A stretch of DNA of 64,000 nucleotides from a virus: positions 14,042 to 78,041 of the IMG/VR virus record IMGVR_UViG_3300042453_003986. One strand, given 5' to 3'. Position 1 is the first letter of the stretch, and every line of letters starts with the position of its first letter. The position numbers were made by a program, and so were the translations under genes. Below the pieces are notes generated by a model. It was given only the letters and a program-made list of their open reading frames with translations. It ran no database searches and was not told the DNA's origin. Shown here piece by piece: positions 199 through 64,000 of this stretch.

Positions 199-2114
199 TT
201 GTCATACCTCATACTAATTGCGGGATCGACAATTACGCTGTTTCCTAGTTTTGGAAGTACCTCCCGCGCGGCTTCTTCCATTGCCTCCTTTAGTATAACA
301 CGAGCTTCAGGAGCATACAACTCTGTAGACTCTACAATAATCTCGTCGTGCACGGTCGATACAATAACCGCCCGTTTACGCTCTAATCGATCGAACGTCT
401 TCACAAGCGCAAGCTTGACCATCGTTGCAGACAACGCTTGAATGGGGAAATTGCTGCCCTCGCGCTCTGCCGCCGCACGCACCCACTGGCGAAAGAATTG
501 ACTCGTATCCCACCAACGCCGCCGACCATAACTGTCCGCAACAAACCCGCGAACAATTACCGAGCGCGAGCTCTGTTCAAGCCATTGGGTGGCTTGAGGA
601 AACAAACGATGCCAGTCCTTGATAATTGCCTCAGCCTTGGGAGCGGCAATCTTTACCCCCAGCGGACCGAGCTGAATAGTCATCTGCTTGGCCAAACTCT
701 CCGCGCCGACTGAGTACGCAATCGAGTAGTTGACCATCTTGGCGACGTCGCGCCAAATCTTAAACGGGTGGCTCTTCTTGTTCTCGTTTGTAATATCCTT
801 TACACCAAGGACATGTTTTGCCACGTACGTGTGTAAATCCTCTAAGTTAGTGATAAGCCCCTCGTCTCCACTCGCATCTGCGATGATCACCAGCTCAATA
901 GTCGAGTAGTCAGCGATAATCAACCGGCGATTTTCTTTGGCCACTTGAAACGCGTGACGAATAGAGTCGTTGATGTTTAGACTCTTCATCTTCTGATCGG
1001 AGGGGATGTTCTGCAGGTTCGGTGCAGAGCTGCTAAAGCGCCCAGTGGCAGCCCCGATTTGTTTGAACGTGCAGTGCACCCGCTTTGTTACCGGATTTTG
1101 CATCTGCTGCAGCCCGACGACGTATGTAGAATGGAGTTTTTTCGCCCCCACGAGGTACGCGTATAAGCGCAGCATTTGATTCTCGTAGCGGCCAAACGCG
1201 TCTACAGACTCAAGAAGATCCCCATCGTTTACCAAGTCCTCCAGTCGATAGTCCGGAGCAGTCTTGCGGTTCCTAAAATCCCACTCAGTCAAGCTCCGCG
1301 CGCTAAGACTGTCGGTATCTATGCCCAACGCGTTAAAGACACGAAGCATTTGCTTCGTTGAAGACGTGTTAATGACCTGCACTCCCTCACGACTTACAAG
1401 CACGCACTCAGCAAGCCCTGACTGCAGCACCATGTCCTGAAGAGCCCGATCAGCGCGCTCAATGACATCTTGAAGTACTGGCTCCAACTGGGCCAAATGC
1501 GCGGCGTTCAAGGGCATACCGTAGTACTCCATCATGGCAACTACGGGCACTAAGCGCATCTCCAGCGAGTATACTTTTAACAGTTCATTCTCTGTAAGAA
1601 GCTGCAAGTGTAAAGGGTATAGACGACGAAGATACACTACGTCAGCGGCCGCGTAGTCTATCTGAGCCTGCGTTAGCGAAGTAAACCCATCAGTAAACCC
1701 ATCACGTACTGTCTTATCTACGTCCTCATCAAATCGACGCTTTACAGTCGCCTGTAAGCTGACTCGCTCATTGAGTCCCGCAGTCAGTAAACTCTCAGTA
1801 ACCATCGTGTCATGGACGTTCTGCAGCAGATACCGCCCAAAGTGAAACAACACCTTAAGGTCGAATGTTGCGTTGTGCAAAACCTTGACGGTACGTTGTT
1901 GCGTCAGCAATTCTTCAAATTCCTGCAAAGAGTCTAAAGGCAGCTTAGTGTAGTCGTAGACGTACACTTCCTGTTCGTCGGCGATCTGCAAAAGCAGCAA
2001 ACGCATTGAGTAGGGGTCTAGGCCTGTAGTCTCGGTATCGATGTACAGTACCGCAGCGCGAGACAACTCCTGCACAGATTGAGTAAGCTCAGCAACATCA
2101 GAAATCAGTTTCAT
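195..2114 (-). CDS. polA: Family A DNA polymerase with 3'-5' exonuclease
   Basis: Exo motifs IDTETTG, HNATFDL and YAAAD; TGRFSSSAPNLQNIP; motif A DYSTIEL; motif B RDVAKMVNYSIAY; motif C VHDEI. Confidence 0.95.
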   Translation of the reverse strand: MKLISDVAELTQSVQELSRAAVLYIDTETTGLDPYSMRLLLLQIADEQEVYVYDYTKLPLDSLQEFEELLTQQRTVKVLHNATFDLKVLFHFGRYLLQNVHDTMVTESLLTAGLNERVSLQATVKRRFDEDVDKTVRDGFTDGFTSLTQAQIDYAAADVVYLRRLYPLHLQLLTENELLKVYSLEMRLVPVVAMMEYYGMPLNAAHLAQLEPVLQDVIERADRALQDMVLQSGLAECVLVSREGVQVINTSSTKQMLRVFNALGIDTDSLSARSLTEWDFRNRKTAPDYRLEDLVNDGDLLESVDAFGRYENQMLRLYAYLVGAKKLHSTYVVGLQQMQNPVTKRVHCTFKQIGAATGRFSSSAPNLQNIPSDQKMKSLNINDSIRHAFQVAKENRRLIIADYSTIELVIIADASGDEGLITNLEDLHTYVAKHVLGVKDITNENKKSHPFKIWRDVAKMVNYSIAYSVGAESLAKQMTIQLGPLGVKIAAPKAEAIIKDWHRLFPQATQWLEQSSRSVIVRGFVADSYGRRRWWDTSQFFRQWVRAAAEREGSNFPIQALSATMVKLALVKTFDRLERKRAVIVSTVHDEIIVESTELYAPEARVILKEAMEEAAREVLPKLGNSVIVDPAISMRYDK

Positions 2115-2424
2115 GTAGCACCTGCATCGTTATACGAGTACCATCTACAAACACCAACGCCAACCCGTCGGCTACACCGACAATAGTAAAATCTTCCCGA
2201 ACTACGCAAAGCGGACAGTGGTCTTCGTACTCAAAAGCAATCACAGGCGGCGTGTACGCCTTTCCTGTATCCGCAGTCCGTTTCTTGGGCGGATACGGAA
2301 GCGCAGTCACTGACTGCGCCCGTACATCTACCAACTTGGCGGCAAAGCGGTACAGGTCTTTTACGTTAACCCGCACTTTCTGCCCTACGAGACCCGCATA
2401 CGGGGCCTTATCCACCTTCACCAT
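2098..2424 (-). CDS. Hypothetical protein
   Basis: 108-aa ORF overlapping both neighbours in the replication operon. Confidence 0.6.
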   Translation of the reverse strand: MVKVDKAPYAGLVGQKVRVNVKDLYRFAAKLVDVRAQSVTALPYPPKKRTADTGKAYTPPVIAFEYEDHCPLCVVREDFTIVGVADGLALVFVDGTRITMQVLHETDF

Positions 2425-3016
2425 CGATTATCTCCTTAAACGCAGCTAACGTCAGGACATAGTATACCACAAAATCAATCACTAGCACCATTGGGTACTG
2501 AAGTGCTTTTGTCATGATGGTTCGATACAGCGGCACAGTCTTGATGGGCTTATTAAGCACAAAACGCGCCTCAGTCTTAAGAGCGTCTAGAGAACACACT
2601 TTGGCCAAATCAATTCCGCGAATAATCACAAAATCAGGAGTGTGATTATGGTAGTGGATAACGAGCACGCCAAATAAGGCACGCATCTGCTCGGCCTCTT
2701 GTTGAATTTTCTTCAGCCATAGCTTACTGATCTTGATGCAGGGCTGCCCCATTGCAAATTGCTCAGTAAGCTTACATTCTACTAAATAGCGTCCGGGACG
2801 TGTCGTAAACGGTACAACTACATCACCTTTAGACGCACCAGCCCCTGAAAGAGGCGTTCGATCCCCTGCTAAATACTTCGCTACTCTACGCTCCATCGCC
2901 TTTGACCGTTGCTTATTCAACCGGTTGCGCTCTCGCTTCTCTTCTTTGAGACGCTCAAGCGCAGCTGGTGACGTAATCGGTTTACTGACTGGAGGTGAAC
3001 TTTTGCGTTGGGCCAT
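2408..3016 (-). CDS. PD-(D/E)XK nuclease, Holliday-junction resolvase-like
   Basis: E(RRVAK)...SGAG..KGDV...LVECK pattern; replication context. Confidence 0.7.
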   Translation of the reverse strand: MAQRKSSPPVSKPITSPAALERLKEEKRERNRLNKQRSKAMERRVAKYLAGDRTPLSGAGASKGDVVVPFTTRPGRYLVECKLTEQFAMGQPCIKISKLWLKKIQQEAEQMRALFGVLVIHYHNHTPDFVIIRGIDLAKVCSLDALKTEARFVLNKPIKTVPLYRTIMTKALQYPMVLVIDFVVYYVLTLAAFKEIIDGEGG

Positions 3017-4178
3017 GAAAAATCACCGTACTTACGGCAAGTTTGCCGTTCCTATTCTTATGAAATCGTAAGTTAATCGCGCGATTGCCATTTGTGTCTG
3101 GAAACTCGTCGATAGGCGACATCTCGATAACAGTGTCAGCCACCTGAGATACTTCGCCCGAGTCACGCACGGCGTCAAGTCCTTCTCCACCCTTGTTCAT
3201 CTGCGAGAGGAGTACGACTGCCAAGTTGTGTTCCTTGGCAATCTCCTTAAGATGAACTGCAACTTCCCCCAAATCCTGATTACGGTTGCCGTTAGCGTGG
3301 TGCCTCACAATCTGGAGATAGTCCAGAAACACCACACGACACCCTTGCCGAGCAGCCGCGGCAATCTCCCGCCGGATAGTGTCCAGCGTCACCGTTGGGT
3401 CGTCAATGACAAACATCGGCAACGTCTGCAAGTAGATCACTACCTCTTCAATTCGTGCCGCAGCGGCGCGGTCTACCCGACCGAATTGAATAGCCGTAGC
3501 GTCCAGCGACAATAGGTATGCTACCCAGCGAGAAATTAGCTGCTCCTTCGACATCTCCAACGAGAAGAACAAACTGCGCGTCTGGTACTGCCGCGCCATT
3601 TCTAGCATAGACTGCCCAACCAAGGCAGTCTTGCCGGTGCCCGGCTTGGCCATGACGATGTTCAACGTCTTAGGCAGCCACTCACCGCCCAACAGCGAGT
3701 CAAGAAACCGAATGCCTGTACGCGTAAAAGAGTACGTACCGTCCAACTTCCGCCCAAGGTCGCCCAGCATGCGCTGAGCTCCGGGAATGAGCGTCGAGTC
3801 GTGCGTAGGAGAAACGGGGTCAAACGCCAAAACCTTCTCCACACGCCGCTCATCAGGCTCGTACTTCGTAGCCTCTGCGGCGAGTACGGTCGCTGCGTTG
3901 TGCAGCTGGCGCCGACGCGCTATACGTGCAAGCTCCTCCAGCAGGGCTCGCGATGAAGCAGTAGCAGGCACAAGCAGTTCTGGAGGAATCTGACCCGCGA
4001 ATGCGATGTGCAGAACCTCAAAACTTAGCTCACCGTAACGAACATAGGCTTCCTTTAAGGCCACAAAGTAGTGCTGCCGCTCCTCCGTAAACACAGCAGA
4101 GCTTACATTGTGCATAAGTTCTGGATTCTGGATAAACGAGGTAAGCAATCGCCACTCAGCTGCTTGATCTTGGTACAT
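2982..4178 (-). CDS. DnaB-like replicative helicase
   Basis: Walker A AKPGTGKT, FSLEMS, FLDYLQ, LSQMN, DSGEVSQVAD, KNRNG. Confidence 0.95.
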   Translation of the reverse strand: MYQDQAAEWRLLTSFIQNPELMHNVSSAVFTEERQHYFVALKEAYVRYGELSFEVLHIAFAGQIPPELLVPATASSRALLEELARIARRRQLHNAATVLAAEATKYEPDERRVEKVLAFDPVSPTHDSTLIPGAQRMLGDLGRKLDGTYSFTRTGIRFLDSLLGGEWLPKTLNIVMAKPGTGKTALVGQSMLEMARQYQTRSLFFSLEMSKEQLISRWVAYLLSLDATAIQFGRVDRAAAARIEEVVIYLQTLPMFVIDDPTVTLDTIRREIAAAARQGCRVVFLDYLQIVRHHANGNRNQDLGEVAVHLKEIAKEHNLAVVLLSQMNKGGEGLDAVRDSGEVSQVADTVIEMSPIDEFPDTNGNRAINLRFHKNRNGKLAVSTVIFHGPTQKFTSSQ

Positions 4179-5085
4179 AGCCGTGTCTCCTCATCAACAC
4201 TGCCCAATTAGTATAGGGCAGCGAATAACCTAAAAGCGACATAAACATCTTCGGACCCTTAGTCAGGATATAGGTGTCCACATCCATTTTACTCCCAGAA
4301 AGCGGTAAAAACAAGATGTTGCACTCTCCAAGGCGCTGGGCTAGCGTGTCAACAGCGGCGTACACATTCTCCGCAACTGCACGATCAGCCTGCGAATCAA
4401 ACATAATCACACGTGTCTGCTGCTGGTACAAACTACGCAATCGCCAGCGCCAAGTGTTGATTCCCGGAAGAGCTACAGCAGAAACGCCGATTTGCTGGCA
4501 CACTAGCGCCTTTATCTCCCCCTCAGTAATCACCACAGTCGCTCCAGTCGGTGGCCGCTGTCCCTGAGGCACATAGGGCCATTCATCTGCTCCACGAAAC
4601 GCCGCCCGTCCGTAGGGACCCTTATATCGTACTTCTGCCTCAGGATCGAGTGACCGCCCCCGTAAGTCGGTCACCTCGCCATCTGGGCTTATATAAGGGA
4701 AAATAATACGGCTCGCCAGCACAGAGCTTCCCCCGTTAGTTGCAATACCTGCATCGCGAGCAATGCTGTCTGTGTACAGCGGATGCGGCCCCGCGGGGCA
4801 GTACCCAATCTGATTCGCGTCAATAATACGGTCGGTAATCCCTCGCGTATGTAAGTATGCGCGAGCTTCTGGAGTAAGGCAGGCGTGGTAGTAGGCCGCG
4901 CACTGTCGATAATACTGTCGAATACCCGCCAGATTTTCTGACACCTTTAGGAGCTGGCCTACTGACTCATTACGAGCCCCTTTGGTGTAGCCGCAATTAA
5001 AACAATGCTCTACCCCGTTATCAGGGGTAACATACAAGTTGTGTCCGTCACACTCTGGACACGTCGCTTTGTATCCTCTTGCCAT
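4156..5085 (-). CDS. DNA primase (Zn finger + TOPRIM)
   Basis: CPEC...HCFNC zinc finger, YLHTRGI, RIIFP, GR, ITEGEIKA, FDS; adjacent to the helicase. Confidence 0.9.
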   Translation of the reverse strand: MARGYKATCPECDGHNLYVTPDNGVEHCFNCGYTKGARNESVGQLLKVSENLAGIRQYYRQCAAYYHACLTPEARAYLHTRGITDRIIDANQIGYCPAGPHPLYTDSIARDAGIATNGGSSVLASRIIFPYISPDGEVTDLRGRSLDPEAEVRYKGPYGRAAFRGADEWPYVPQGQRPPTGATVVITEGEIKALVCQQIGVSAVALPGINTWRWRLRSLYQQQTRVIMFDSQADRAVAENVYAAVDTLAQRLGECNILFLPLSGSKMDVDTYILTKGPKMFMSLLGYSLPYTNWAVLMRRHGYVPRSSS

Positions 5086-5095
5086 GAATGCTCCT

Positions 5096-5142
5096 AAAAA
5101 AAAAAAAAGAAAGCAGCGGCAGGAAACTTCCTGCCGCTGCTT
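5096..5142 (-). terminator. Intrinsic terminator after SSB-like gene
   Basis: 15-bp inverted repeat AAGCAGCGGCAGGAA/TTCCTGCCGCTGCTT (5111-5142) followed on the minus strand by a long T tract. Confidence 0.8.
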
Positions 5143-5149
5143 CGCGGAC

Positions 5150-5962
5150 TTAGAACAGCTCGTCAGCGACTTCCGCCTTAGCGGGCGAGGCTTGGGGTGC
5201 CTCCAGTGCTTGCATGTTCGGAGCTAGTGGAATACGGTAATCCTTGACCACCGTATCGTACTCCTCACCGGCGAGCAAAGCCTTAACCGCTTGAACAGGC
5301 CACGGCTTGCAGTATGCAAACAAGTCGTATACCCGTGCGTACGCTTCGGGGTCCAACACCGTGCGATCAGCTGCGTGTACAGTGATAGTACGCTTCGTCA
5401 AGAGACCCTGACCAACAGTGCGGATTTGAAGGTCGACTGTAGACAACGGGATCAAAGCACCCGTCTCTTCGTCAAACGTCGTCCGCGACAAGTCGTCGAG
5501 ATCGTTAAACAAGCCACGGCCACCACGCTGGCTAACTGAACCCTTGAGCACGACCACTTCGTTGCGACGAGTAGGGCGCTCGGCAATCTCCTTGCCCTCT
5601 ACGACGTACTGGTTCATCGAGTTAGGGTAAATAACCCCGTTTTCCCGGCGCACTACCAGCGTTTTGTCGTACACGTTAATGAAAGCTTGCAGCTTCACAC
5701 CTTCAGCAATTTGAGGGGGAAGAAGACTGCGCGTCTGTTCGTCAACAAAAACAGGACGACGAATTTCCTTGTCATTGCGCTTGAAGGTCATCCACGCCTC
5801 CAGCACCACAGGACCCATCAACGGGAGCTGTGGATTTGCGGGATCAGGCAACAGACGAATGCGGCGGCTGCCCTCGCGCAAGTCCAGAAACGGCAGCGAG
5901 TTGTTCGTAGTAGCAGGCATTCCTTTGAGGTTCGCGGCTTGCTTCAGCATCTCATCAAACAT
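5150..5962 (-). CDS. Putative single-stranded DNA-binding protein
   Basis: IRLLP motif near the N-terminus, acidic-hydrophobic C-terminus (ADELF), and position upstream of primase/helicase. Confidence 0.55.
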   Translation of the reverse strand: MFDEMLKQAANLKGMPATTNNSLPFLDLREGSRRIRLLPDPANPQLPLMGPVVLEAWMTFKRNDKEIRRPVFVDEQTRSLLPPQIAEGVKLQAFINVYDKTLVVRRENGVIYPNSMNQYVVEGKEIAERPTRRNEVVVLKGSVSQRGGRGLFNDLDDLSRTTFDEETGALIPLSTVDLQIRTVGQGLLTKRTITVHAADRTVLDPEAYARVYDLFAYCKPWPVQAVKALLAGEEYDTVVKDYRIPLAPNMQALEAPQASPAKAEVADELF

Positions 5963-5967
5963 CGGGT

Positions 5968-6114
5968 TTACTCCTTCGAGGCGATCTCTCTCGCCATTGC
6001 ATTGAGTCCGTCCATTACTATTCTTCGGACTACGGGATTGACTATACCATGATCTTCAAGCCGTGTCAAGATACGTTTGATATATTTTTGAGCGACATTA
6101 CTCGGAGATACCAT
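5968..6114 (-). CDS. Small hypothetical protein (48 aa)
   Basis: ATG at 6114 preceded by GGAG; MVSPSNVAQKYIKRIL... Confidence 0.5.
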   Translation of the reverse strand: MVSPSNVAQKYIKRILTRLEDHGIVNPVVRRIVMDGLNAMAREIASKE

Positions 6115-7276
6115 CGACAATCTCCATAAACTGATTAGCGATATTCTTCCAGTTAAACTTGTCTTTGCGCATGTGCAAATAGCCAAGGTTTCCAAGGTGA
6201 GTCCGCCGGTTGCGATCGGTGTATAAACGATGCAAAGCAGCAATAGCGCTTTCCATCTCAGTAATGTGGTGCACCGTGTTCAAGCCACGGTCAGTCAAGA
6301 ACGGAACTGGGTATACTTCTGCATACTCGCAGTTATCCTCTGGCCACTCCGCAAGGGCCGAGTGACGTGGAATAATCACGGGTAGACCTGCGGCCATCGC
6401 TTCCGCGACCGGCAAACACCACCCTTCAGCCATCGTCGTAGTGAAGAAAACGTCAGCAGCATTATAAATCCAGTTGATCTGCTCAGCGGGTAATCCCTTA
6501 TCTGGGCGGATGTGTGGAGAACTAATCGCCAAGCGGTCAGCAATGCCTAAGTACTCCGCCCACTGAATAATGTCAATACCAAAATCATGGAGCGACCCAT
6601 GATAATAGAATTTAACACTTTTCGGCAGGTTGTACCGCTTCACCCATTCGGCAAAGTAATACATGGTCATGTCAATTCTCTTGCGTGGCTGGTTTCGTTG
6701 AAGACAAAGTACGCAATACACGTCTTCGTCCATCTTCATCTTTTTCCGTACTTCCTCGCGAGATACTGGGCGAAACGTCTCAGTGTCTACCCCATGAGGG
6801 ACAATGTACAACTTCTTAATAATATCGGCCGTCTTTAAAATCTGTTCGAGACCGAACTGTGTATACGTAACCACTGCATCATACTTAGAGAGCCCTTCAA
6901 CAAATTCCTTCTTAACGTTTTCTGCGTCTACTGGCGTATACGCAACAAACTTTGAAGAGACCTTGTCGCGAATTTGCTCAAACTGCTCGGCGTATTGCAT
7001 GCAAATCCACGGGTCGTTAAGCACAAAAACAACGTCAGGCTGGATGCGCGTAATAAGTTCGTTTAGTCGAGAAAAACCCCAGATGTCCCCTGCCGCAGCA
7101 GCCGGATACACTTTTAGTCCTTCGCAAAGCGGATCGTAATCCCCATGATAATTAACTCCCAAGACGTGAACCTCGTACTTCTCTCGAAAATACTTAATAA
7201 GGTTCGTGCTTACCACTCCAAATCCGGTCTGTATAGGAAAGTCTCCTACATACAGCATTTTGAGTTTCTCTGTCAT
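6098..7276 (-). CDS. GT-B (GT4-like) glycosyltransferase
   Basis: TGFGVVS, VPHGVD, RNQPRKR, YNAADVF..TTMAEGWCLPVAEAMAAGLP. Start at ATG 7276 after AGGAG. Confidence 0.9.
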   Translation of the reverse strand: MTEKLKMLYVGDFPIQTGFGVVSTNLIKYFREKYEVHVLGVNYHGDYDPLCEGLKVYPAAAAGDIWGFSRLNELITRIQPDVVFVLNDPWICMQYAEQFEQIRDKVSSKFVAYTPVDAENVKKEFVEGLSKYDAVVTYTQFGLEQILKTADIIKKLYIVPHGVDTETFRPVSREEVRKKMKMDEDVYCVLCLQRNQPRKRIDMTMYYFAEWVKRYNLPKSVKFYYHGSLHDFGIDIIQWAEYLGIADRLAISSPHIRPDKGLPAEQINWIYNAADVFFTTTMAEGWCLPVAEAMAAGLPVIIPRHSALAEWPEDNCEYAEVYPVPFLTDRGLNTVHHITEMESAIAALHRLYTDRNRRTHLGNLGYLHMRKDKFNWKNIANQFMEIVDGISE

Positions 7277-55352: not shown

Positions 55353-56810
55353 ATGCTGAAAGCACTCGTACAGAATGAGACGGTCACCAACAACGGCATG
55401 GCGGCCTACCGCTCAACAAACTCGGCCTGTTTAGACCTGTTCTACAAGATCGGGGCAAGCCGCGGGAAGGACATCACTCAGCCGTTTTTTGCTGCCTATC
55501 AGGAAAACCGCGAATTAGCTCTTCGCATTGCCCTTTGGGCACGAGACGCACGTGGAGGTGCGGGCGAACGCCAAGTGTTTCGCGACATCTTGGTTATGCT
55601 CGAAGAGCTTGACCCAATGCTGGTGCGGCTCTTAATCCCACGCATTCCTGAGCTTGGCCGCTGGGATGACCTGCTGGTGTTCAAGACCAACTGGGTGAAA
55701 TCTGCTGTCTACAGCTTTATTGCCGTAGCCCTTGAAGCAGGGGATCGCCTCTGTGCCAAGTGGATGCCGCGAAAAGGCCCTGTCGCAGCGGAACTGCGGC
55801 GCGTATTGGGGAAGTCTCCTCGCGAGTACCGCAAGTACTTGGTAGAGCGCACCCATGTCGTAGAGTCGCAGATGTGCGCCCGTCAATGGGACCGCATCGT
55901 GTTCGACACCGTACCCAGCTTGGCTAGCGCCCGGTACCGCAAGGCGTTTTGGCGGAACGCCGAAGAGGCATACCGCACGTACGTTGAGGGCTTGGCCAAC
56001 AAGACCCGCAAGGTACATGGCAACTTGTTTCCTCACGACGTGGTTCGCTCAGTGCTCTTCTCAGAAGCCACTGATCCTGCGTTTCGCGCACTTGAGGAGC
56101 AGATGATCGAAGCGCAGTGGGCCGCTTTGCCGACCTACTTGCAAGATGCTCGTATTCTTCCGTTAGTCGACGTCAGCGGGTCGATGACCTCGCCGATTTC
56201 GGGGAAGCTGCGGGCGATGGACGTGGCCATTTCTTTGGGTTTGTACTGCGCAAGCAAAAACACTGGCCCATTCAGTGACTTGGTCATGACTTTTTCAGAG
56301 GTACCGACGCTGCTGTCTCTGGAAGGATCGGTCGTCGAAAAAGTGCGTCAGCTGGAGAGCGCTCCTTGGGGTATGAACACCAACTTTGCTGCCGCCTTGC
56401 AAGAGCTGCTGAGCCTTGCCCAGCGAGAGTCTGTGCCCCAGTCAGAGATGCCGGAAGTACTGTTGGTGTTGTCCGACATGCAGTTCGACTCGGTGGAGTC
56501 ATACCGCAGCAAGAAGACAACTGCTCTTGCAGAGGTACGTGAGAAATACGTGCTTCACGGGTACACGCCGCCCACGATCGTGTTCTGGAACCTCAAAGAT
56601 GAGGACAACGTACCGGCCACCCTGCGGCACGACAACACGGTCTTGGTAAGCGGCTACTCACCCGCGTTGCTCAAGAGCCTCTTGGCCACGTTACAGGCGG
56701 TTCGCGGACAGGACGCGCACGCTCGTACACAAGCGCTGCAGAACCTCTCGCAGGCCATGATGTACCTTACGGTAGACGTCCCACGGTACGATCCTCCGGT
56801 ATCCGTCTAG
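55353..56810 (+). CDS. DUF2828-family TROVE-like + vWA domain protein
   Basis: T.NG..ST.SACLDLF, ARD.RGG.GER, GRWDDL, AKW.PR, MIDAS DVSGSM, WGMNTNF, SDMQFD, IVFWNL, VSGYSP. Confidence 0.85.
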   Translation: MLKALVQNETVTNNGMAAYRSTNSACLDLFYKIGASRGKDITQPFFAAYQENRELALRIALWARDARGGAGERQVFRDILVMLEELDPMLVRLLIPRIPELGRWDDLLVFKTNWVKSAVYSFIAVALEAGDRLCAKWMPRKGPVAAELRRVLGKSPREYRKYLVERTHVVESQMCARQWDRIVFDTVPSLASARYRKAFWRNAEEAYRTYVEGLANKTRKVHGNLFPHDVVRSVLFSEATDPAFRALEEQMIEAQWAALPTYLQDARILPLVDVSGSMTSPISGKLRAMDVAISLGLYCASKNTGPFSDLVMTFSEVPTLLSLEGSVVEKVRQLESAPWGMNTNFAAALQELLSLAQRESVPQSEMPEVLLVLSDMQFDSVESYRSKKTTALAEVREKYVLHGYTPPTIVFWNLKDEDNVPATLRHDNTVLVSGYSPALLKSLLATLQAVRGQDAHARTQALQNLSQAMMYLTVDVPRYDPPVSV

Positions 56811-56870: not shown

Positions 56871-56902
56871 CCCCCTTACTCAGAGTAAGGGGGTGCTTTT
56901 TT
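56871..56902 (+). terminator. Intrinsic terminator
   Basis: CCCCCTTACT/AGTAAGGGGG hairpin then TGCTTTTTT. Confidence 0.75.
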
Positions 56903-57140
56903 GTGCCCGCAAAACGGCGCTGGTGATGGCCACGACCGAACGAGGGGCTGACAGGAGCAGGGGCCAAAACGGGTCGGTGGGTTTTTAAAATTTGTGAGGG
57001 TCACAGGGGAAATAGGGGGGAGACTTGTGACTACTTTGTGACTACCATGCACAGTAGTCAACGGTCAGACTAACAGTTAGTACTGACTGCTTGTGACTTG
57101 CAAATGTCAAGTCACCGACGTCCGCAGAAAGGACAGTACC

Positions 57141-57449
57141 GTGAAGATCATCATCCACCCCACCGCCACCGCCGACCTTGCCCGCATCCCCGCCGCCCAC
57201 ATCCTCGTCAGCCTCCGGGCTGACGGCATGTACGAGGTCTCGATCTCGGTCGACCCCGAGGTCGAGGTCTTCGAGACCATCGACCCCGAGATCGAGGTCT
57301 TCGAGACCATCGACCCCGAGATCGAGGCGATGGACGACGAGATCGAGGTCGCCATCGACCCTGAGGTCGAAGTCGACGTTGACGACCAGTATGAGTACTG
57401 GTACGAAGACGAAGACGACTGGGAAGTCGTCGACGTTGAGGTCGAGTAA
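57141..57449 (+). CDS. Highly acidic repeat protein
   Basis: GAAAGGA RBS + GTG; (I/V)DPE(I/V)EV repeats (30-nt tandem units). Confidence 0.7.
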   Translation: MKIIIHPTATADLARIPAAHILVSLRADGMYEVSISVDPEVEVFETIDPEIEVFETIDPEIEAMDDEIEVAIDPEVEVDVDDQYEYWYEDEDDWEVVDVEVE

Positions 57450-57450
57450 G

Positions 57451-57560
57451 CAGCGAAACACGTCTCACTCAGTGCGATTGAGTGAGACGTGTCTACGGTT
57501 GTTGCTCATAAGAGTAACGTAAAATTGATCCGTACTGATGAGCTGTTTCAGTATTCTTAC
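57451..57560 (+). ncRNA. Type II hammerhead ribozyme, copy 1
   Basis: CAGC-GAAA, 14-bp stem III, GTC site (cut after 57493), stem I TACGG/CCGTA, CTGATGA, GCTG; loop I TAAGAGTA pairs with 3' tail TATTCTTA. Confidence 0.92.
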
Positions 57561-57575
57561 AGCAAGGAGTTTGTC

Positions 57576-58016
57576 ATGTTGAAGTTGCTTAAGCTTGTGT
57601 TTGTATTCATCGTCCGCGCAATCATCGTCGCCGCAGCAGTCGCAGCGGCTGTCGGCACCATCGTCGAGCTTTCGCTCGGTGAGGGTGTTGGCTACTTGGT
57701 AGCTATTGTCCTCGGCGTCGTTATGCTAATCACGCCTGCTGTTGAGGCAGTCGTGCGGTCAACACAGCTCATCAAGGCGGGTAACCGCTTCGAGGCGGCT
57801 GTCGCAGCCTTCATGGCTGCGCAAAGCGAGTACGCCGAGCGCAAGGCGTTGGCTGAGGTCCGCGCTGAGTGGAAAGCAGTCCACGGGGTCCTCTGGGAAG
57901 TTGAAAAGTGGTACGGCTGTTCAGCAGCTGCAAAGCGGATGACCGCCGACGTCCAGTCACGCGTATTCGCTTGCGAGCGCGCACACGAGAACAGCCGGCA
58001 CGGCAACAACTGGTAG
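57576..58016 (+). CDS. Two-TM membrane protein, paralogue A
   Basis: AAGGAG RBS; two hydrophobic helices; LWEVEKWYGC. Confidence 0.7.
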   Translation: MLKLLKLVFVFIVRAIIVAAAVAAAVGTIVELSLGEGVGYLVAIVLGVVMLITPAVEAVVRSTQLIKAGNRFEAAVAAFMAAQSEYAERKALAEVRAEWKAVHGVLWEVEKWYGCSAAAKRMTADVQSRVFACERAHENSRHGNNW

Positions 58017-58025
58017 TTGTTGCCC

Positions 58026-58057
58026 CTGCAACGCTCACCTGCAGATATGGATGTGAG
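58026..58057 (+). ncRNA. Pseudoknot motif B, copy 1
   Basis: CTGCA-acg-CTCAC-c-TGCAG-atatggat-GTGAG. Confidence 0.6.
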
Positions 58058-58116
58058 AAGTATTGTCTGCGGACTACACAGTGTAGATCCGCTTAGCTCT
58101 TGAAAGGAGCACGGCT

Positions 58117-58350
58117 ATGCCAATCTACTTCATCTTGACCAACGGCTGTATCCGCGGCTTCGGCAGCGAGGAGATTTACCACATCGGGGTTGACCCCGAG
58201 GTGGAAATCAGCCAGCTCCGTCGGGGCGAATTCGTTCGCCTCGAGTGGAGCCTCTACCGCGTTATCTCGGTAGACGGGAACGAGGCTGTGTTGGCGCGGT
58301 CCAAGCGGTCGAAAGGCCGCTGGGCGCGCGCAACGCGCATCGGCCGCTAG
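58117..58350 (+). CDS. Hypothetical protein
   Basis: GAAAGGAG RBS; 77 aa. Confidence 0.65.
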   Translation: MPIYFILTNGCIRGFGSEEIYHIGVDPEVEISQLRRGEFVRLEWSLYRVISVDGNEAVLARSKRSKGRWARATRIGR

Positions 58351-58460
58351 CAGCGAAACACGTCTCACTCAGTGCGATTGAGTGAGACGTGTCTACGGTT
58401 GTTGCTCATAAGAGTAACGTAAAATTGATCCGTACTGATGAGCTGTTTCAGTATTCTTAC
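58351..58460 (+). ncRNA. Type II hammerhead ribozyme, copy 2
   Basis: Identical to copy 1, 900 nt downstream; predicted cut after 58393. Confidence 0.92.
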
Positions 58461-58475
58461 AGCAAGGAGTTGGTC

Positions 58476-58961
58476 ATGTCTACACTGTTCAAGATGATGT
58501 TCGTGTTCGTCACGATGGCGTTGCGTGCCATGGCGATCGCCATGGCGATCGCCATTCCGTTCGGGGTCGGCTACGAGTGGTGGTTAGGCCACGGCAGCGG
58601 ATACTTGATGGCTGCGGCCATCGTGGTCCTTCTGCCAACATTCGCTTTCCTCCACGGCCTCTGGGTCGTGGGGAGCCTGATCCTCGCGAGCAAGCGCCTT
58701 CAGGAGGAGTTCAACATCCTCCGCGACATGCTTGCGGAAGGCGCCGGTTGGAGTCTGCGGGAGCAGCTCCGCGACGTTGTCGACGCCCGAAACGCCGTCT
58801 TCCAGAATCTCTGGGAGATGGAGAAGTGGTGGCTTTGCGATGTGATCGCGCGCGACATGATGTCGCGCATCGATCGCGAACGCCGCACCCTCGAATACGC
58901 CGTAGAGCGTAACATCGAGGCGGCACAGGCACGTCGCAACTCCAGCGATTTCCGCTGGTAG
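58476..58961 (+). CDS. Two-TM membrane protein, paralogue B
   Basis: Same RBS context as paralogue A; LWEMEKWWLC. Confidence 0.7.
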   Translation: MSTLFKMMFVFVTMALRAMAIAMAIAIPFGVGYEWWLGHGSGYLMAAAIVVLLPTFAFLHGLWVVGSLILASKRLQEEFNILRDMLAEGAGWSLREQLRDVVDARNAVFQNLWEMEKWWLCDVIARDMMSRIDRERRTLEYAVERNIEAAQARRNSSDFRW

Positions 58962-58970
58962 TTGTTGCCC

Positions 58971-59002
58971 CTGCAACGCTCACCTGCAGATATGGATGTG
59001 AG
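58971..59002 (+). ncRNA. Pseudoknot motif B, copy 2
   Basis: Identical to copy 1. Confidence 0.6.
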
Positions 59003-59031
59003 AGTATTCACGTTTAGCCTTTAGAAAGGAG

Positions 59032-59217
59032 GTGAACACCATGTACGATCCCGACAAGGACGAGGTCATCGAGGAAGAGATGGCAGAGTTTTCAGCTCTT
59101 GAGCAGGTCGCAGCTGAGCTGCGCGCGCAAGGGCTGGGCTGGGAATGTCCCTACTGCTGCAGCGACGTCGCTGCAGCGATGGAGGCATGCCGCGAGTGCG
59201 GCTATCCCAGCCTCTAG
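59032..59217 (+). CDS. Small acidic Zn-ribbon protein
   Basis: GAAAGGAGG RBS; CPYC..CREC. Confidence 0.65.
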   Translation: MNTMYDPDKDEVIEEEMAEFSALEQVAAELRAQGLGWECPYCCSDVAAAMEACRECGYPSL

Positions 59218-59225
59218 CTGTCCGC

Positions 59226-59255
59226 CTGCAACGCTCACCTGCAGTAGGATGTGAG
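59226..59255 (+). ncRNA. Pseudoknot motif B, copy 3
   Basis: Same stems, shorter linker (taggat). Confidence 0.6.
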
Positions 59256-59286
59256 AAGCATTTGCGTCTAGCTTCTTGGAAAGGGG

Positions 59287-59499
59287 GTGAATAGCATGGC
59301 GCGATTAAGCCTCCCGATCATGGAGGCCGTGGCCTTGGCTCAGGTCCATTACGGATCGAACGCCAAGATCCGGCCGCAATGGTCGGCTGAGCACGCGCTG
59401 TGGGTAGTGGTGCTGCCACCCAACCCGCAGCGTGGGCTTGTCGCCGCAGCCTTCGAGGCTGCTGGCGTATTGGTGCTGGCCGAGATCCGGCCAGCGTAG
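59287..59499 (+). CDS. Hypothetical protein
   Basis: Purine-rich RBS; fits between spacers. Confidence 0.55.
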   Translation: MNSMARLSLPIMEAVALAQVHYGSNAKIRPQWSAEHALWVVVLPPNPQRGLVAAAFEAAGVLVLAEIRPA

Positions 59500-59557
59500 T
59501 TCGCCGGGGCGTACTCGTTACGTAGTGCGCAATGCGTAGCGAGTATGCTCCCTGTCC

Positions 59558-59586
59558 TTGCGGCCTTCATAGTATGCCGCTATAAT
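59558..59586 (+). promoter_or_regulatory. Possible sigma70-type promoter
   Basis: TTGCGG-17-TATAAT, the same hexamers as the promoter at 41548. Confidence 0.45.
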
Positions 59587-59666
59587 AGAATTACTATGAC
59601 CACTGCGGAATACAAGGTACCGTTCCGCGACCTTATTCTAGGTACCTGATGAAAGGAGCTTGCCGT

Positions 59667-59909
59667 ATGGCAAGTCTATTCATCGCGGCCTTGGCCGCAC
59701 TAGTGGCCGCATCGGCCACAGCCGCGTACTACCGCGGCACCATCGCCGCCCACGCCGCCGTCCGCTTGGCCTTGCGGGCCAAGCGTGCGGGCCGACGCGC
59801 CCGCGCCAGCCGCATTGCGCGCTGGCATCGCAAATCAGCGCTTCGCCGCGCTGAGGCGCGCGGTGCACGAAAGGCCAAAGCGCAGGTTCGCCTGCGCCTA
59901 GGCCTCTAG
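59667..59909 (+). CDS. Small membrane-anchored Arg/Ala-rich protein
   Basis: GAAAGGAG RBS; hydrophobic N-terminus and very basic tail. Confidence 0.6.
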   Translation: MASLFIAALAALVAASATAAYYRGTIAAHAAVRLALRAKRAGRRARASRIARWHRKSALRRAEARGARKAKAQVRLRLGL

Positions 59910-60038
59910 GCAGCCGGAGTAATGGGCGTGTACTCCGTTAACAAAACTCTGCCCACCATTGCAGACGTGATGCACCTGCGACAATGATCTTGCATCCTGG
60001 CCTACGGGCCAGCGAACGACGAGAAAGGAGGACGTCCT

Positions 60039-60161
60039 ATGGCTAGACTACACGGGTTACGGCTACCGTGCCCTCGTACGCCTAGCCGCAGTGCATGGCT
60101 AGTCCGCTTCTGGGCCCTCGCAGACGGACTGGCAGGTTACAGGAGGGCAGAAAGGAGGTAG
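60039..60161 (+). CDS. Possible 40-aa peptide (not in ORF track)
   Basis: GAAAGGAGG RBS; MARLHGLRLPCPRTPSRSAWLVRFWALADGLAGYRRAERR. Confidence 0.4.
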   Translation: MARLHGLRLPCPRTPSRSAWLVRFWALADGLAGYRRAERR

Positions 60162-60162
60162 G

Positions 60163-60576
60163 ATGATCGAAATCCTCCTCGCCTTGGTGTGCTACTCAGG
60201 CGGCAGGTGCGAAGAGCCCTCGTTGCCGATGGCATACGAGGCGGCGGTCGTCGCGATGTGCGAGAGCGGCGACACGCTACGATTGGGCTCCCTCGACTGG
60301 GAGGCCGTCAACGTCAACGCCGACGGCACGCGTGATACGGGCGCGTTCCAAATGAACTCGTATTGGGTGTGGTCCGGAGAGGACCGCTGGTTCATCAACC
60401 AGCTCGCGTGGGAATTGAAAATGTCCCCCGACACCCTGCTTGCAGCGTGGCCAACTGCAGGTGATGCGCCCCCGGCAGCGCAACTCAGGGCCTTTTATCT
60501 GTTATGGGACGAGGGCCGTGGCTCGTCCCATTGGGCGGCATCTCAGCACTGCTGGGGTCCGCTACTGGGGAAATAG
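60163..60576 (+). CDS. Secreted lysozyme-fold / lytic transglycosylase-like protein
   Basis: Signal-like N-terminus; CESG, N.N.DGT.DTGAFQMN..W, G.SHW....C. Confidence 0.65.
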   Translation: MIEILLALVCYSGGRCEEPSLPMAYEAAVVAMCESGDTLRLGSLDWEAVNVNADGTRDTGAFQMNSYWVWSGEDRWFINQLAWELKMSPDTLLAAWPTAGDAPPAAQLRAFYLLWDEGRGSSHWAASQHCWGPLLGK

Positions 60577-60578
60577 CT

Positions 60579-60800
60579 ATGTCTAATGAACATTACGTGC
60601 TTAGCGCACGTAGCCCAGAGTGGCTGGTCGCACAAATTCGCCGCGCAGGTCTCTGGGCACGTGTTGGCGAGGACTATGGGACGGTGATCGTCCCGGCCGA
60701 CCGGAAACGCCTCGCCGAAATCTGGAGAGCGCTGGGCGGCGGCCCTAGTTACCGCCCGTGGGAAATGCTGAGCGAAATCGACGGCAACTTCGCAGAGTAG
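60579..60800 (+). CDS. Hypothetical protein
   Basis: ATG 2 nt after the previous stop. Confidence 0.55.
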   Translation: MSNEHYVLSARSPEWLVAQIRRAGLWARVGEDYGTVIVPADRKRLAEIWRALGGGPSYRPWEMLSEIDGNFAE

Positions 60801-60806
60801 CTCAGC

Positions 60807-60838
60807 CCGCAAGGCTCACCTGCGGATATGGATGTGAG
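60807..60838 (+). ncRNA. Pseudoknot motif B, copy 4
   Basis: CCGCA/TGCGG (compensatory change) plus CTCAC/GTGAG. Confidence 0.6.
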
Positions 60839-60871
60839 AGTATTAGACGCGCAGAAAGAAAGGAATCTAAC

Positions 60872-61642
60872 ATGCGCACAATTTCAGCTGGGATGGGCTT
60901 CGGCCTGTCCATCCAAAACGGCCAGTTGGTTGGCCACAACATCAGCGTGGGGCGCTTCGCCTGCGACCACGTCGCGGCAGGTGCCGTGGGCGTCGCTGTC
61001 AACTCGGCTACGGCTGAGCTGACGGCGTTTGTCCGCCGCCCCAGCGAACAGCTCGGGGCGTTGGTAAGCAGGTTCACCGACGAAGTGTGCAAGCTCAACT
61101 TGTACATTATTACCGACGTAGCGGTCTCTGACCGCGCGATCGGTCTCATTGGGCAAGACGCTTACGGATACCGCTTGGTCGTGGTAGGCTACGCGGGCCT
61201 ACCGCATCAGTCGGCTGTCAGCGACCTTATAGTCGACGACGGTCGGCTGTTCCAGCCAGACCCGTCAACGACAGGGTGGCTACTTGCCGTCAAGTCGCCG
61301 CTGCGCTGGCAGGTCACTAACGTCGCTCCGGCGTTGACAGTCACCAACGAGTGGCTGTACTCTCCTGAGGGGGAAAAAGCGCCGTTTAGCCACTACAGTC
61401 CCGACACCGGGCTGGAGTGGACGCACTCCGAGTACCACGGGGAGTGCGTAGCGGCATACGCTGACTACGTAGCCACCCTGAACGGCGGCGTGGTCTACCC
61501 CTCAGCCAACTTGGGCAATCAGTACCAAGTGCGGTACATGCCCACATGGAGGGGCTGGAAAGACTTGGCCTTCGGTCATCAGTGCGGCATCGGCCGTGCT
61601 GAGGACGGTTCTGTGCACTTCTGGGGTACGCAGCCCCAGTAA
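60872..61642 (+). CDS. Hypothetical protein
   Basis: GAAAGGA RBS; 256 aa. Confidence 0.65.
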   Translation: MRTISAGMGFGLSIQNGQLVGHNISVGRFACDHVAAGAVGVAVNSATAELTAFVRRPSEQLGALVSRFTDEVCKLNLYIITDVAVSDRAIGLIGQDAYGYRLVVVGYAGLPHQSAVSDLIVDDGRLFQPDPSTTGWLLAVKSPLRWQVTNVAPALTVTNEWLYSPEGEKAPFSHYSPDTGLEWTHSEYHGECVAAYADYVATLNGGVVYPSANLGNQYQVRYMPTWRGWKDLAFGHQCGIGRAEDGSVHFWGTQPQ

Positions 61643-61647
61643 GTGCA

Positions 61648-61683
61648 CCGTGGAGTCGAGTAACCACGTTAAAATACTTTCAG
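61648..61683 (+). repeat. Intergenic motif D, copy 1 (36-nt exact repeat with 63037-63072)
   Basis: CCGTGGAGTCGAGTAACCACGTTAAAATACTTTCAG; CGTGG/CCACG stem. Confidence 0.75.
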
Positions 61684-61706
61684 TGTTATTAGTATGGAGG
61701 TGCGTT

Positions 61707-61808
61707 ATGTTGATCAACAAGTTGATGAAGGCAGGGTTTAAGCCCCGCCGGTCGACAGTGAACCGCTGGCTCGCTCCCGTGCGGAAGTTCCGCCGGGTAG
61801 TATGGTAA
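61707..61808 (+). CDS. Small basic peptide (33 aa)
   Basis: GGAGG RBS; MLINKLMKAGFKPRR... Confidence 0.5.
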   Translation: MLINKLMKAGFKPRRSTVNRWLAPVRKFRRVVW

Positions 61809-61818
61809 GGAGAAAACT

Positions 61819-62238
61819 GTGGAAAACATCATCATGCAGGCGGGCGACGAGGTCCGCGTGTACTGGAACAGCCGGAAACGGGTGTTTTCAGTACAAGTTC
61901 GCGACACCCAGAACCGCTGGGTCGTCGCCGGCTACACGAATAGCCTTGTGCTGACCGACGTCACCTTTACGGTGAGCAAGGCCGGGTTGGCCCGTGCTCG
62001 TCGCGAAGGTGTCAAGAATGTCCACGCCTATGTGCGTGGGACCGTGCCCGCTGATGATCTGTTCACGCGCTGGGGCGTGGACAACTGCACGGCCAGCGTG
62101 TACTACAGTTACCACGTCGGTAGCTTCCACACCCGCGCAGGTGTCCATATCGACGACGCACGGTACGCCGTGTTAGCCGTCGAAGACGCCCGCCCCGTCA
62201 TCCGCGTGGCCCCGGTCACTGAGGTGGCCGAGGTCTAG
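61819..62238 (+). CDS. Conserved phage hypothetical protein
   Basis: VRVY.N....FSV...L.DV.F.VS.AG..R..REG.KNVHA.V.G, recognised as a common phage family of unknown function. Confidence 0.65.
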   Translation: MENIIMQAGDEVRVYWNSRKRVFSVQVRDTQNRWVVAGYTNSLVLTDVTFTVSKAGLARARREGVKNVHAYVRGTVPADDLFTRWGVDNCTASVYYSYHVGSFHTRAGVHIDDARYAVLAVEDARPVIRVAPVTEVAEV

Positions 62239-62243
62239 TTCAT

Positions 62244-62270
62244 CCGGAGCAGGTAACCGGTCAACCTTGC
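62244..62270 (+). ncRNA. Pseudoknot motif C, copy 1
   Basis: CCGG-aGCAGGTaa-CCGG-tca-ACCTTGC. Confidence 0.55.
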
Positions 62271-62295
62271 GCTTTAGTAACAGTAGGAGTGTGCC

Positions 62296-62772
62296 ATGGA
62301 AATCAAGCTCACTTACCAAGTCACCGACACTCACGGCAATGCCGTCGAATTGGAGGTGCAGCAGTTGCTGCTGGCGGTTCCTTCCCAGAAGGAGCTGTTG
62401 GAATGGTGCTGGTCCGTTGTCCGCAACCAGCGTTGGGAGTTCGTCTCCCAATGGATACTGGAAGTTGACAAGGAGGTCGTGGACATCCCCGAGTGGGGGT
62501 TGAAATTCGTGCATACGTCCGTCACCAATGGCTTTGCCATCGAAGACGGTGGAGTCGAGGAGTCAGTCTTTTGGCTTACTAAGCCGTTCGTCTCCTTTAC
62601 GGCCGAGGAGCTGAGCAGTATTGAAAGGGAGTGGTCCCATCGAGATGATAACTGCGTGTACAAAGCACCCGGGATGCACTCGGGCGGCGTCCTCATGGAC
62701 GGCTTGCCCACCGGGGCGCCAGTAATCGAGTTGTCGGTTTACGTCCGCGACGTTTTGCCGTACAGCCGCTAG
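62296..62772 (+). CDS. Hypothetical protein
   Basis: AGGAG RBS; acidic, 158 aa. Confidence 0.65.
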   Translation: MEIKLTYQVTDTHGNAVELEVQQLLLAVPSQKELLEWCWSVVRNQRWEFVSQWILEVDKEVVDIPEWGLKFVHTSVTNGFAIEDGGVEESVFWLTKPFVSFTAEELSSIEREWSHRDDNCVYKAPGMHSGGVLMDGLPTGAPVIELSVYVRDVLPYSR

Positions 62773-62777
62773 TTTGT

Positions 62778-62804
62778 CTGGAGCAGGTAACCAGTTAACC
62801 TTGC
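62778..62804 (+). ncRNA. Pseudoknot motif C, copy 2
   Basis: CTGG-aGCAGGTaa-CCAG-tta-ACCTTGC. Confidence 0.55.
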
Positions 62805-62826
62805 GCTTTAGTACAAGAGGTGCATT

Positions 62827-63030
62827 ATGTGGCAACTTCTCTACGCAAACGCGCTTCTCGCTGTGTACATGCAGGACACCGCTAAGGTGCCTGCGTATCG
62901 GGTGGTGTTTAAGGGCGAGCAGAAGGTGTTCCGGGGGCCGAACGCTCGCTGGGACGCCGCCGCCTACATCCGTGAGCTGGACTGGGATACGTGGGCATCC
63001 ATGATTTCCCACGAGATTGACTGGGAGTAG
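62827..63030 (+). CDS. Hypothetical protein
   Basis: GAGGTG RBS; 67 aa. Confidence 0.6.
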   Translation: MWQLLYANALLAVYMQDTAKVPAYRVVFKGEQKVFRGPNARWDAAAYIRELDWDTWASMISHEIDWE

Positions 63031-63036
63031 TACTCC

Positions 63037-63072
63037 CCGTGGAGTCGAGTAACCACGTTAAAATACTTTCAG
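63037..63072 (+). repeat. Intergenic motif D, copy 2
   Basis: Exact copy of 61648-61683. Confidence 0.75.
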
Positions 63073-63093
63073 CTCTACTGTATGGAGGTTGTT

Positions 63094-63510
63094 ATGGAAT
63101 GGACACGAGGCGAGTGGGCAAACCGCGGCTACGTAGATAGCCGCCCCCGGCCGTTCGACGCCCCCGACATCCGGGCTACGGAGCAGCTGCTCCGCAACAT
63201 CAACCCGCAGACTCCGATCGACCCCGAAGGAGCGGTCGGATACTGGGAAGTTCCCAACTTCACTTACCGGCCTATTTGGGCACACGTCACCGTAGTGACA
63301 CCCCGTCGCTATGCGACATGGGAGGTAATGATGGTTCCGGTACGGGATCTCAAGTGGCAAGGCGACCCGAACGTCGAGCGCGCTATTGAGCGTCTCTGGC
63401 CCCGGGCTACGAGGACCGTTGTTTGGTGGCGTGGGTTTTTCGGGAACCGCACGCCGACCACTGTCGACTACGTCAAGCGGTTGCTCCACTACCGCAACGT
63501 CGTAGAGTAG
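63094..63510 (+). CDS. Hypothetical Trp-rich protein
   Basis: GGAGG RBS. Confidence 0.65.
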   Translation: MEWTRGEWANRGYVDSRPRPFDAPDIRATEQLLRNINPQTPIDPEGAVGYWEVPNFTYRPIWAHVTVVTPRRYATWEVMMVPVRDLKWQGDPNVERAIERLWPRATRTVVWWRGFFGNRTPTTVDYVKRLLHYRNVVE

Positions 63511-63515
63511 CTGTA

Positions 63516-63542
63516 ACGGAGCTGGTAACCGTATAACCTAGC
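63516..63542 (+). ncRNA. Pseudoknot motif C, copy 3
   Basis: ACGG-aGCTGGTaa-CCGT-ata-ACCTAGC; compensatory changes in both stems. Confidence 0.55.
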
Positions 63543-63564
63543 AGTGTAGTAAGAGGAGATTGTT

Positions 63565-63933
63565 ATGGGTTACAAAGTTATTGTGGTTTCGCGAAGTAAG
63601 GAAGTGTTCTCGGCGTTCACGCTGGACGTGTACCCGGTAGCTTCTCACGAGGAGGCTATTAAGCTGGTTGAAGATGCAGACCACAGTCTGCGCCAATCGT
63701 ACGCGTGGGTCCCCGGAGGGGATTGGTTCTACGCCGCGAACATCCTAGCCTTTGAGGTCACTCCTCGGGGCGACTGCGAGTTTGGGTTGCGGTATTTCTG
63801 TTTAACCGATGAAGAGGTCGCTAAGGAGTGTGCAGCGCGCAAAATGGACGTAGCTAAGTGTATGGAAACCCGCGCGGCTATACGCGCTAAGCCCGCGGAA
63901 CCGTACGCGTTTATTGCTCGGTTCAAGAACTAG
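63565..63933 (+). CDS. Hypothetical protein
   Basis: GAGGAG RBS; 122 aa. Confidence 0.65.
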   Translation: MGYKVIVVSRSKEVFSAFTLDVYPVASHEEAIKLVEDADHSLRQSYAWVPGGDWFYAANILAFEVTPRGDCEFGLRYFCLTDEEVAKECAARKMDVAKCMETRAAIRAKPAEPYAFIARFKN

Positions 63934-64000
63934 TTTTCCGAACGCCGATGAAACGTACTTTCGGCATACATCAAAGGAGGTACTCATATGGAGTACACAG

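Follow-up and report, generated by a model that had tools for sequence, protein, structure and literature searches.

What does a folded RNA of about 31 nt do when it recurs, behind one stop codon after another, in the gaps between the small genes of a single phage operon? The question is posed by an element, motif B, in a 64,000-nt stretch of DNA (the window) that comprises bases 14042–78041 of IMGVR_UViG_3300042453_003986, a complete 78,041-bp IMG/VR record of an uncultured lake phage with a 73-bp terminal repeat. An initial annotation of the window, made from its letters alone, had described motif B as a four-copy H-type pseudoknot with one compensatory base-pair change. Judged by covariation in both of its helices across related phages, motif B is a real H-type RNA pseudoknot, with its strands interleaved in the order S1-5′/S2-5′/S1-3′/S2-3′. 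We take it to be a variant of the structured punctuation of phage operons, with an uncatalogued fold.

Motif B in the window

A scan with the pattern CYGCAASGCTCACCTGCRG, allowing up to three mismatches, matched the window only at 58026, 58971, 59226 and 60807, all on the plus strand, confirming the four copies and their sequence as first annotated; the chance expectation is 0.04 matches per shuffle, and none of 100 shuffles reached four. The same scan of the whole record and a covariance model search of the window both returned these four copies and no further ones. The element consists of helix S1 (CUGCA paired with UGCAG) and helix S2 (CUCAC paired with GUGAG), connected by loops L1 (ACG), L2 (C) and L3 (AUAUGGAU). 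In copy 1 (58026–58057), S1 pairs 58026–58030 with 58040–58044 and S2 pairs 58034–58038 with 58053–58057, which places L1 at 58031–58033, L2 at 58039 and L3 at 58045–58052. Copy 2 spans 58971–59002; copy 3 (59226–59255) has the 6-nt L3 UAGGAU instead of AUAUGGAU; and copy 4 (60807–60838) has AGG as L1 and CCGCA/UGCGG as S1, a U-A to C-G change that direct reading bears out as compensatory. Every copy follows a UAG stop (58014–58016, 58959–58961, 59215–59217 and 60798–60800, respectively), beginning 9, 9, 8 and 6 nt past it, in keeping with the 6 to 9 nt first reported, and ending 59, 38, 40 and 33 nt ahead of the next start codon (ATG at 58117, 59041, 59296 and 60872).

Covariation of both helices in related phages

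Exact and degenerate pattern scans located motif B in four further IMG/VR contigs and in ∼16 metagenome loci, among them contigs of 76–94 kb with the same gene order. A single operon can hold up to five to six copies, ahead of unrelated small genes. The degenerate pattern held the conserved letters fixed and did not constrain four base pairs. Of the matches in the phage context, defined as after a stop codon and before a GAAAGGA ribosome-binding site (RBS), 46 have both helices fully paired, and one (L145:9624) carries an A.G as its terminal S1 pair. A further 70 metagenome matches lie outside this context, all in G+C-rich coding DNA; their pairing is incomplete and they look like chance. Scanning 185,579 species genomes (GTDB) with the pattern gave 52 matches, none with both helices paired, and thus no prophage copy and no clue to the host.

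Support for the pseudoknot goes well beyond the single compensatory change on which it was originally based. A covariance model search, which the initial annotation had suggested as a check, was carried out with S1 alone as the model structure and S2 left out; it recovered 82 copies from related uncultured phages, 58 of them distinct, with both helices kept. Over these 58 copies, 99.5% of the cells of the full pseudoknot are paired and two-sided changes occur in 6 of the 10 pairs, three in each helix, a degree of pairing or covariation reached by none of 500 shuffles; all slid controls were at most 57% paired. Despite its absence from the structure used in the search, S2 is 100% paired, in the forms CUCAC/GUGAG, CCCAC/GUGGG, CCCGC/GCGGG, CUUAC/GUAAG, CCUAC/GUAGG and CUCGC/GCGAG, and S1 occurs with matching partners as CUGCA, CCGCA, UAGCA, UUGCA, CCUCA, UCUCA and CCACA. 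All copies lie on the gene strand, and 12 have U.G at the first S1 pair, in addition to further G.U pairs; because that U.G would be A.C on the opposite strand, it is the gene-strand RNA that folds. When the four gaps were folded as nested structures, with a tool that cannot model pseudoknots, the z scores were unremarkable (−1.8 to +0.8).

Across the 58 distinct copies the terminal pairs vary, and the junction-proximal pairs and loop bases are near invariant. The near-fixed loop positions are the first and third bases of L1 (whose middle base may be C, G or U), the single C that forms L2 and the GAU that ends L3; in the flanks, they are the C directly before the knot and the A directly after it. 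Three further loci (L094, L111 and L175) carry a distant subgroup, UGGCA-ACU/ACG-CYCRC-C-UGC-GWCGGAU-GYGRG, in which S2 covaries and S1 is apparently cut to 3 bp.

Anchoring to the upstream stop codon

Position was assessed in 76 distinct copies with a long open reading frame (ORF) upstream. The preceding stop is UAG in 56 and UAA in 20 of these, and never UGA. The spacer between stop and knot is 5–10 nt in 66 copies and 5–15 nt overall, in all three phases, and the distance from knot to next start ranges from 28 to 88 nt (median, 55). The tight spacing to the stop and the variable distance to the start argue that the element is anchored to the upstream stop and not to the downstream RBS. A position 5–10 nt past a stop corresponds approximately to the mRNA channel entrance of a ribosome standing on that stop, and a knot placed there could stay folded during translation.

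Behind the knot comes an AU-rich linker. The first 10 nt are 66% AU, compared with 48% in the surroundings, and many copies are then followed by a conserved hairpin of 10–11 bp (hp2), whose upper stem, CUACA-NNN-UGUAG, is fixed and whose lower stem covaries (GCGGA/UCCGC, GCGAA/UUCGC, GCAGA/UCUGC and GUAGA/UCUAC). This module is present in the window and in L006, L170, L112, L104, L102, L134 and L155, usually 8–13 nt past motif B, and stands alone at position 10552 (oriented) of L006. Copy 1 is the sole window copy with hp2: the AU-rich linker AAGUAUUGUCU (58058–58068), unpaired in the predicted fold, leads into hp2 at 58069–58092 (GCGGA-CUACA-CAG-UGUAG-A-UCCGC), and a small hairpin at 58096–58110 (GCUC/GAGC) carries the RBS, GAAAGGAG, of the gene that starts at 58117. 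RBS-carrying hairpins of this kind covary among the downstream regions (GCUC/GAGC, GUCC/GGAC and GUGUC/GACAC). They account for part of the TAGC..T..GAAAGG lead-in that had been noted before three of the RBSs and that we find behind copies 1–3 and not behind copy 4, the hairpin being GCUC/GAGC at copy 1 and CCUU/AAGG at copy 2.

Structure is also seen on the other side of copy 1. At 58001–58023, the post-stop spacer GUUGUUGCC is exactly complementary to the last codons of the upstream gene, GGCAACAAC; pairing of GUUGUUGCC with GGCAACAAC would form a 9-bp hairpin with the UAG lying partly in its loop and partly in its first stem base. Directly ahead of the copy 2 stop there is a hairpin too, but a different one.

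Interchange with other pseudoknots and with hammerheads

Motif B shares its kind of slot with other structured RNAs. Gene family F1 has motif B behind it in nine relatives, followed by at least six different downstream genes. At the junction before family F5, motif B is found in the window, L170 and L112, and another small pseudoknot, CCC-UACG-CCUGC-G-UGGG-UGAGUAU-GCAGG, is found in L102, L134 and L155; before family F4, L006 carries yet another pseudoknot. The first loop of the replacing family contains ACG or AUG, as does that of motif B, and the two may be distantly related. Sequences of the form CCC-UA[CU]G-CCUGC-G-UGGG-UGAGUAU-GCAGG were seen in L102 (before a 256-aa gene), at position 11319 of L006, and in L134 and L155 (oriented positions). 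In the operon of the window, four or more further motif families occupy the same slot type, at least five in all, together with hammerheads.

Two hammerhead motifs, each with a full core and each in a gene gap, were identified in the window by direct reading. The first, of type II, lies on the plus strand at 57449–57547, with GAAA, GUC, CUGAUGA (57535–57541) and three stems, and cutting is expected after 57493; the second is identical and lies 900 nt away, at about 58349–58447. Rfam hammerhead models give no score on either, even at E ≤ 10, perhaps due to the 31-nt loop I.

Units of a gene plus motif B have been gained or lost among the window, L170 and L112. The window reads B-gene58-B-F4 where L170 reads B-F4, and L170 reads F1-B-F28-B-F11 where L112 reads F1-B-F11. 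In one contig from a marine metagenome (run X7), copy 1 runs straight into copy 2 (58023 to 58968) and 944 nt are skipped; the joint reflects either a natural deletion between the two repeats or the effect of a 45-nt identical block on assembly.

A putative gene-boundary element of the early message

We tentatively favor the possibility that motif B marks gene boundaries in the message as a self-contained element, which probably serves the upstream gene as a folded 3′ cap or insulator. The fold, the strand, the position rules and the interchange with other pseudoknots are observed; every step that concerns nucleases, cutting or stability is inferred. Motif B would act in cis in a long early message and belong to the 3′ end of the upstream gene. 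Placed near the edge of the footprint of the terminating ribosome, the knot could remain folded while the gene is translated, would slow nucleases by giving that gene a folded 3′ end, and would maintain structure in the gap, where ribosomes are absent. Cutting of the message may take place in the short AU-rich single strand that follows the knot, after which the downstream gene would begin with its own hairpins. This role would parallel that of the hammerheads that occupy other gaps of the operon. That different knots are interchangeable, and that hammerheads occupy the same slot type, favors a function carried at the boundaries by the RNA itself.

Precedents exist for such punctuation. Hammerheads flank single genes in prophages and have been suggested to process long phage transcripts (Perreault et al. 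2011, PMC3088659). Like these, motif B recurs as a structured RNA between small phage genes, right after stops and on the gene strand; unlike them, it has no hammerhead core or Rfam match and comprises 30–32 nt with two 5-bp helices. Phage early operons are known to be punctuated by hammerhead ribozymes, and motif B adds a much smaller, evolutionarily well-supported fold in a hammerhead-type slot that can be swapped with other small knots. This suggests that phage messages in general are built with modular RNA elements at their gene boundaries. The RNase III sites of the T7 early region and stabilizing intercistronic or repetitive extragenic palindromic (REP)-type hairpins such as those of puf and malEFG define separately stable segments of a message. 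Motif B resembles them as a repeated folded element between operon genes and differs in that they are long hairpins, of ∼20 bp or very stable, whereas motif B is a small pseudoknot with weak helices.

Several observations weigh against a gene-boundary role of this kind. Taken alone, S1 contributes −4.4 to −6.4 kcal/mol and S2 about −3 kcal/mol; since the single helices are weak, a barrier to nucleases would depend on unproven tertiary contacts, and the hairpins known to block exonucleases are far more stable. About 20 of the 31 bases are near invariant, loops included. Recognition and catalytic sites typically show such conservation more than plain roadblocks do, and the conserved loops are at least as compatible with binding or catalysis as with a barrier; copy-and-paste between copies could also explain the conservation. 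In the window, moreover, motif B sits between two genes inside a hammerhead-to-hammerhead unit and not at the end of the unit. Finally, none of the sequencing runs listed is on record as RNA; the four runs aligned to the locus gave contigs only and no molecule ends, and in run X24, guessed to be RNA, four of the five listed pieces were short matches of 34–40 nt with 3–6 mismatches.

Alternative functions

The same conservation bears on a second explanation, that motif B is the binding site of a trans-acting phage or host protein that coordinately controls translation, stability or antitermination of a set of early genes. A near-invariant core of loop and junction-proximal bases framed by variable terminal pairs would suit such a site, as would several copies per genome in one operon and helices too weak to form a strong barrier alone, and the pseudoknot in the leader of T4 gene 32 is a comparable case of a protein-binding site. 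We nevertheless regard this explanation as fairly unlikely, given that relatives place pseudoknots with different loops at the same junctions and that one operon contains at least five motif families as well as hammerheads: so many families in the same slots would require many partner proteins. Nor is there a candidate partner gene, the neighboring small genes having no Pfam or PHROG match.

We consider it unlikely that motif B and the other small knots that replace it at its junctions are protein-free functional RNAs of a kind undescribed in bacteria or their viruses, either a ∼31-nt self-cleaving ribozyme or a nuclease stall at every gene boundary resembling the exoribonuclease-resistant RNAs (xrRNAs) of flavi- and plant viruses (PMC5760640). 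Like an xrRNA, motif B would be a protein-free knotted fold that stops a processive nuclease; it differs in being much smaller and in having no three-way junction. A possible third pairing, of the 5′ flank (GUYC) with L3 (GGAU), can be drawn in 32 of 65 copies, shows no covariation and is absent from three of the four window copies. If the xrRNA-like form were true, the knots might armor the early message of the phage against host or phage nucleases; and if motif B works without protein, it would also offer synthetic operons a compact means of keeping genes apart. At 31 nt, it is easy to test for cleavage, nuclease stalling and insulation.

Taken separately, the idea that motif B is a new, very small self-cleaving ribozyme, or a nuclease cut site, that splits the early message as hammerheads do appears quite unlikely. 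Its slot type is the one held by hammerhead cores in the same operon, and its near-invariant bases include the C just before and the A just after the knot. Different ribozyme classes share gene-boundary slots in phages, and such neighborhoods have led to new classes. Against this, 30–32 nt is, to our knowledge, smaller than any natural self-cleaving class; motif B contains no hammerhead-like core bases (CUGAUGA/GAAA); and no model of a known ribozyme (hammerhead, pistol, twister, twister-sister, hatchet or HDV-like) matches it. More broadly, Rfam 15 at E ≤ 10 assigned no family to any copy, either in 7.2 kb or in a 361-nt segment with copies 2 and 3, and gave only tRNA at the relatives' loci; the motif B family thus has no catalogue entry there, and a literature search turned up no published description of it.

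A stop-codon usage in which 76 of 76 stops are UAG or UAA, and a spacing of 5–10 nt close to that of frameshift and readthrough pseudoknots, would suit a device aimed at the terminating ribosome, on which motif B could act by slowing or shaping termination at UAG or UAA, by blocking scanning or re-initiation, or by promoting readthrough. Viral pseudoknots just behind a stop codon are known from the upstream pseudoknot domain of tobacco mosaic virus (TMV) and the readthrough pseudoknot of murine leukemia virus (MuLV). Motif B is likewise an H-type pseudoknot a few nucleotides past the stop; TMV and MuLV, in contrast, are eukaryotic RNA viruses, and behind the motif B stops there is no conserved in-frame extension or slippery site. 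The spacers are out of phase, the frames behind the stop soon terminate, short of the next gene and out of phase with it, and the UAG bias extends over the whole operon and is no peculiarity of motif B, which makes an action on the ribosome distinctly improbable. A readthrough product was rejected, no conserved frame being found behind the stops.

Motif B could also be a feature of the DNA, either a repeated linker for homologous recombination of gene cassettes or a promoter or operator. Gene-plus-motif units do come and go between relatives, and the X7 contig joins copy 1 to copy 2, a joint that may be an assembly effect of the 45-nt repeat. Compensatory changes in two interleaved helices, together with U.G pairs, point to selection on RNA, and no promoter-like site was called, so that we hold a DNA-level function to be highly improbable. 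As in the case of the T4 promoter early stem-loop (PeSL) repeats, small early genes lie between the copies and are gained or lost together with them (window, L170 and L112); no sigma-70-like site was called on the plus strand at any copy, and a PeSL-type early promoter inside the repeat and a sigma-70 promoter were accordingly dismissed. A hairpin promoter for an N4-like virion RNA polymerase was rejected as well, the 5,041-aa ORF of the phage having no virion RNA polymerase PHROG match, the stem loops being 9 and 14 nt long, and both interleaved helices covarying with U.G.

Least plausible of all is a ligand-sensing riboswitch aptamer. The initial annotation had loosely likened the topology to SAM/SAH or guanidine-III aptamers, and motif B does share a 30- to 50-nt H-type fold and conserved loop bases with these (RF01727 and RF01763) and with preQ1-I (RF00522) and SAM-II (RF00521); membership in such a class is scarcely credible, as Rfam offers no match, L3 is N2-4 followed by GGAU and not A-rich, there is no expression platform, the RBS lies 28–88 nt away, outside helix 2 and behind other hairpins, and many copies stand in one operon before unrelated tiny genes.

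A few narrower identities were also considered. No terminator-like site was called within any of the four knots. A type III antitoxin (ToxI-like) is not indicated, the copies being dispersed one per gene gap with no tandem repeats, although a toxin gene was not searched for. CACCUGCGG..GGAU resembles the 16S rRNA 3′ end, and CUCACCU resembles the anti-Shine-Dalgarno sequence; both likenesses are taken as coincidence, S2 covarying away from them. The GCUCUU lead-in was rejected as a boxA, being present in only a subset and covarying as an RBS hairpin.

Genomic setting

The bulk of the genome has ∼45% G+C and is coded on the minus strand, including the 5,041-aa ORF. Motif B belongs to an array of about 30 small plus-strand genes (57–60% G+C), which runs from about 56.9 kb of the window across the record ends into genome positions 1–6,500 and is preceded by a strong terminator-like hairpin at 56871–56893. 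Pfam and PHROG searches of the ten genes around motif B gave no match except for a Ro60/TROVE-like gene (55353–56810) just upstream. Motif B was not found at the loci around Ro60-like genes in 80 other phages, and blastn of window positions 57400–61700 against 50,697 annotated phage records returned no match. Another gap of the array, at 61645–61703, contains a motif (GUGGAG..AACCAC UUAAAA) with a weak resemblance to the Rfam DUF805 RNA RF03081, at 24.1 bits (E = 0.53) against a gathering score of 51.1.

Stop codon use separates the array from the rest of the genome. The early plus-strand operon (window 56900–64000 plus genome 1–6500) has 13 UAG, 5 UAA and 1 UGA, and the remaining genes have 12 UAG, 28 UAA and 29 UGA (Fisher P = 4e-5); the early arrays of relatives share the UAG bias (140 UAG, 57 UAA and 23 UGA). 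Because the late genes are without in-frame stops, the UAG bias of the early operon does not reflect recoding. Within the array, the tiny 58-aa ORF between two motif B copies, which is missing from L170, contains at 59153–59181 a near-perfect long palindrome, GCUGCAGCGAC / GUCGCUGCAGC.

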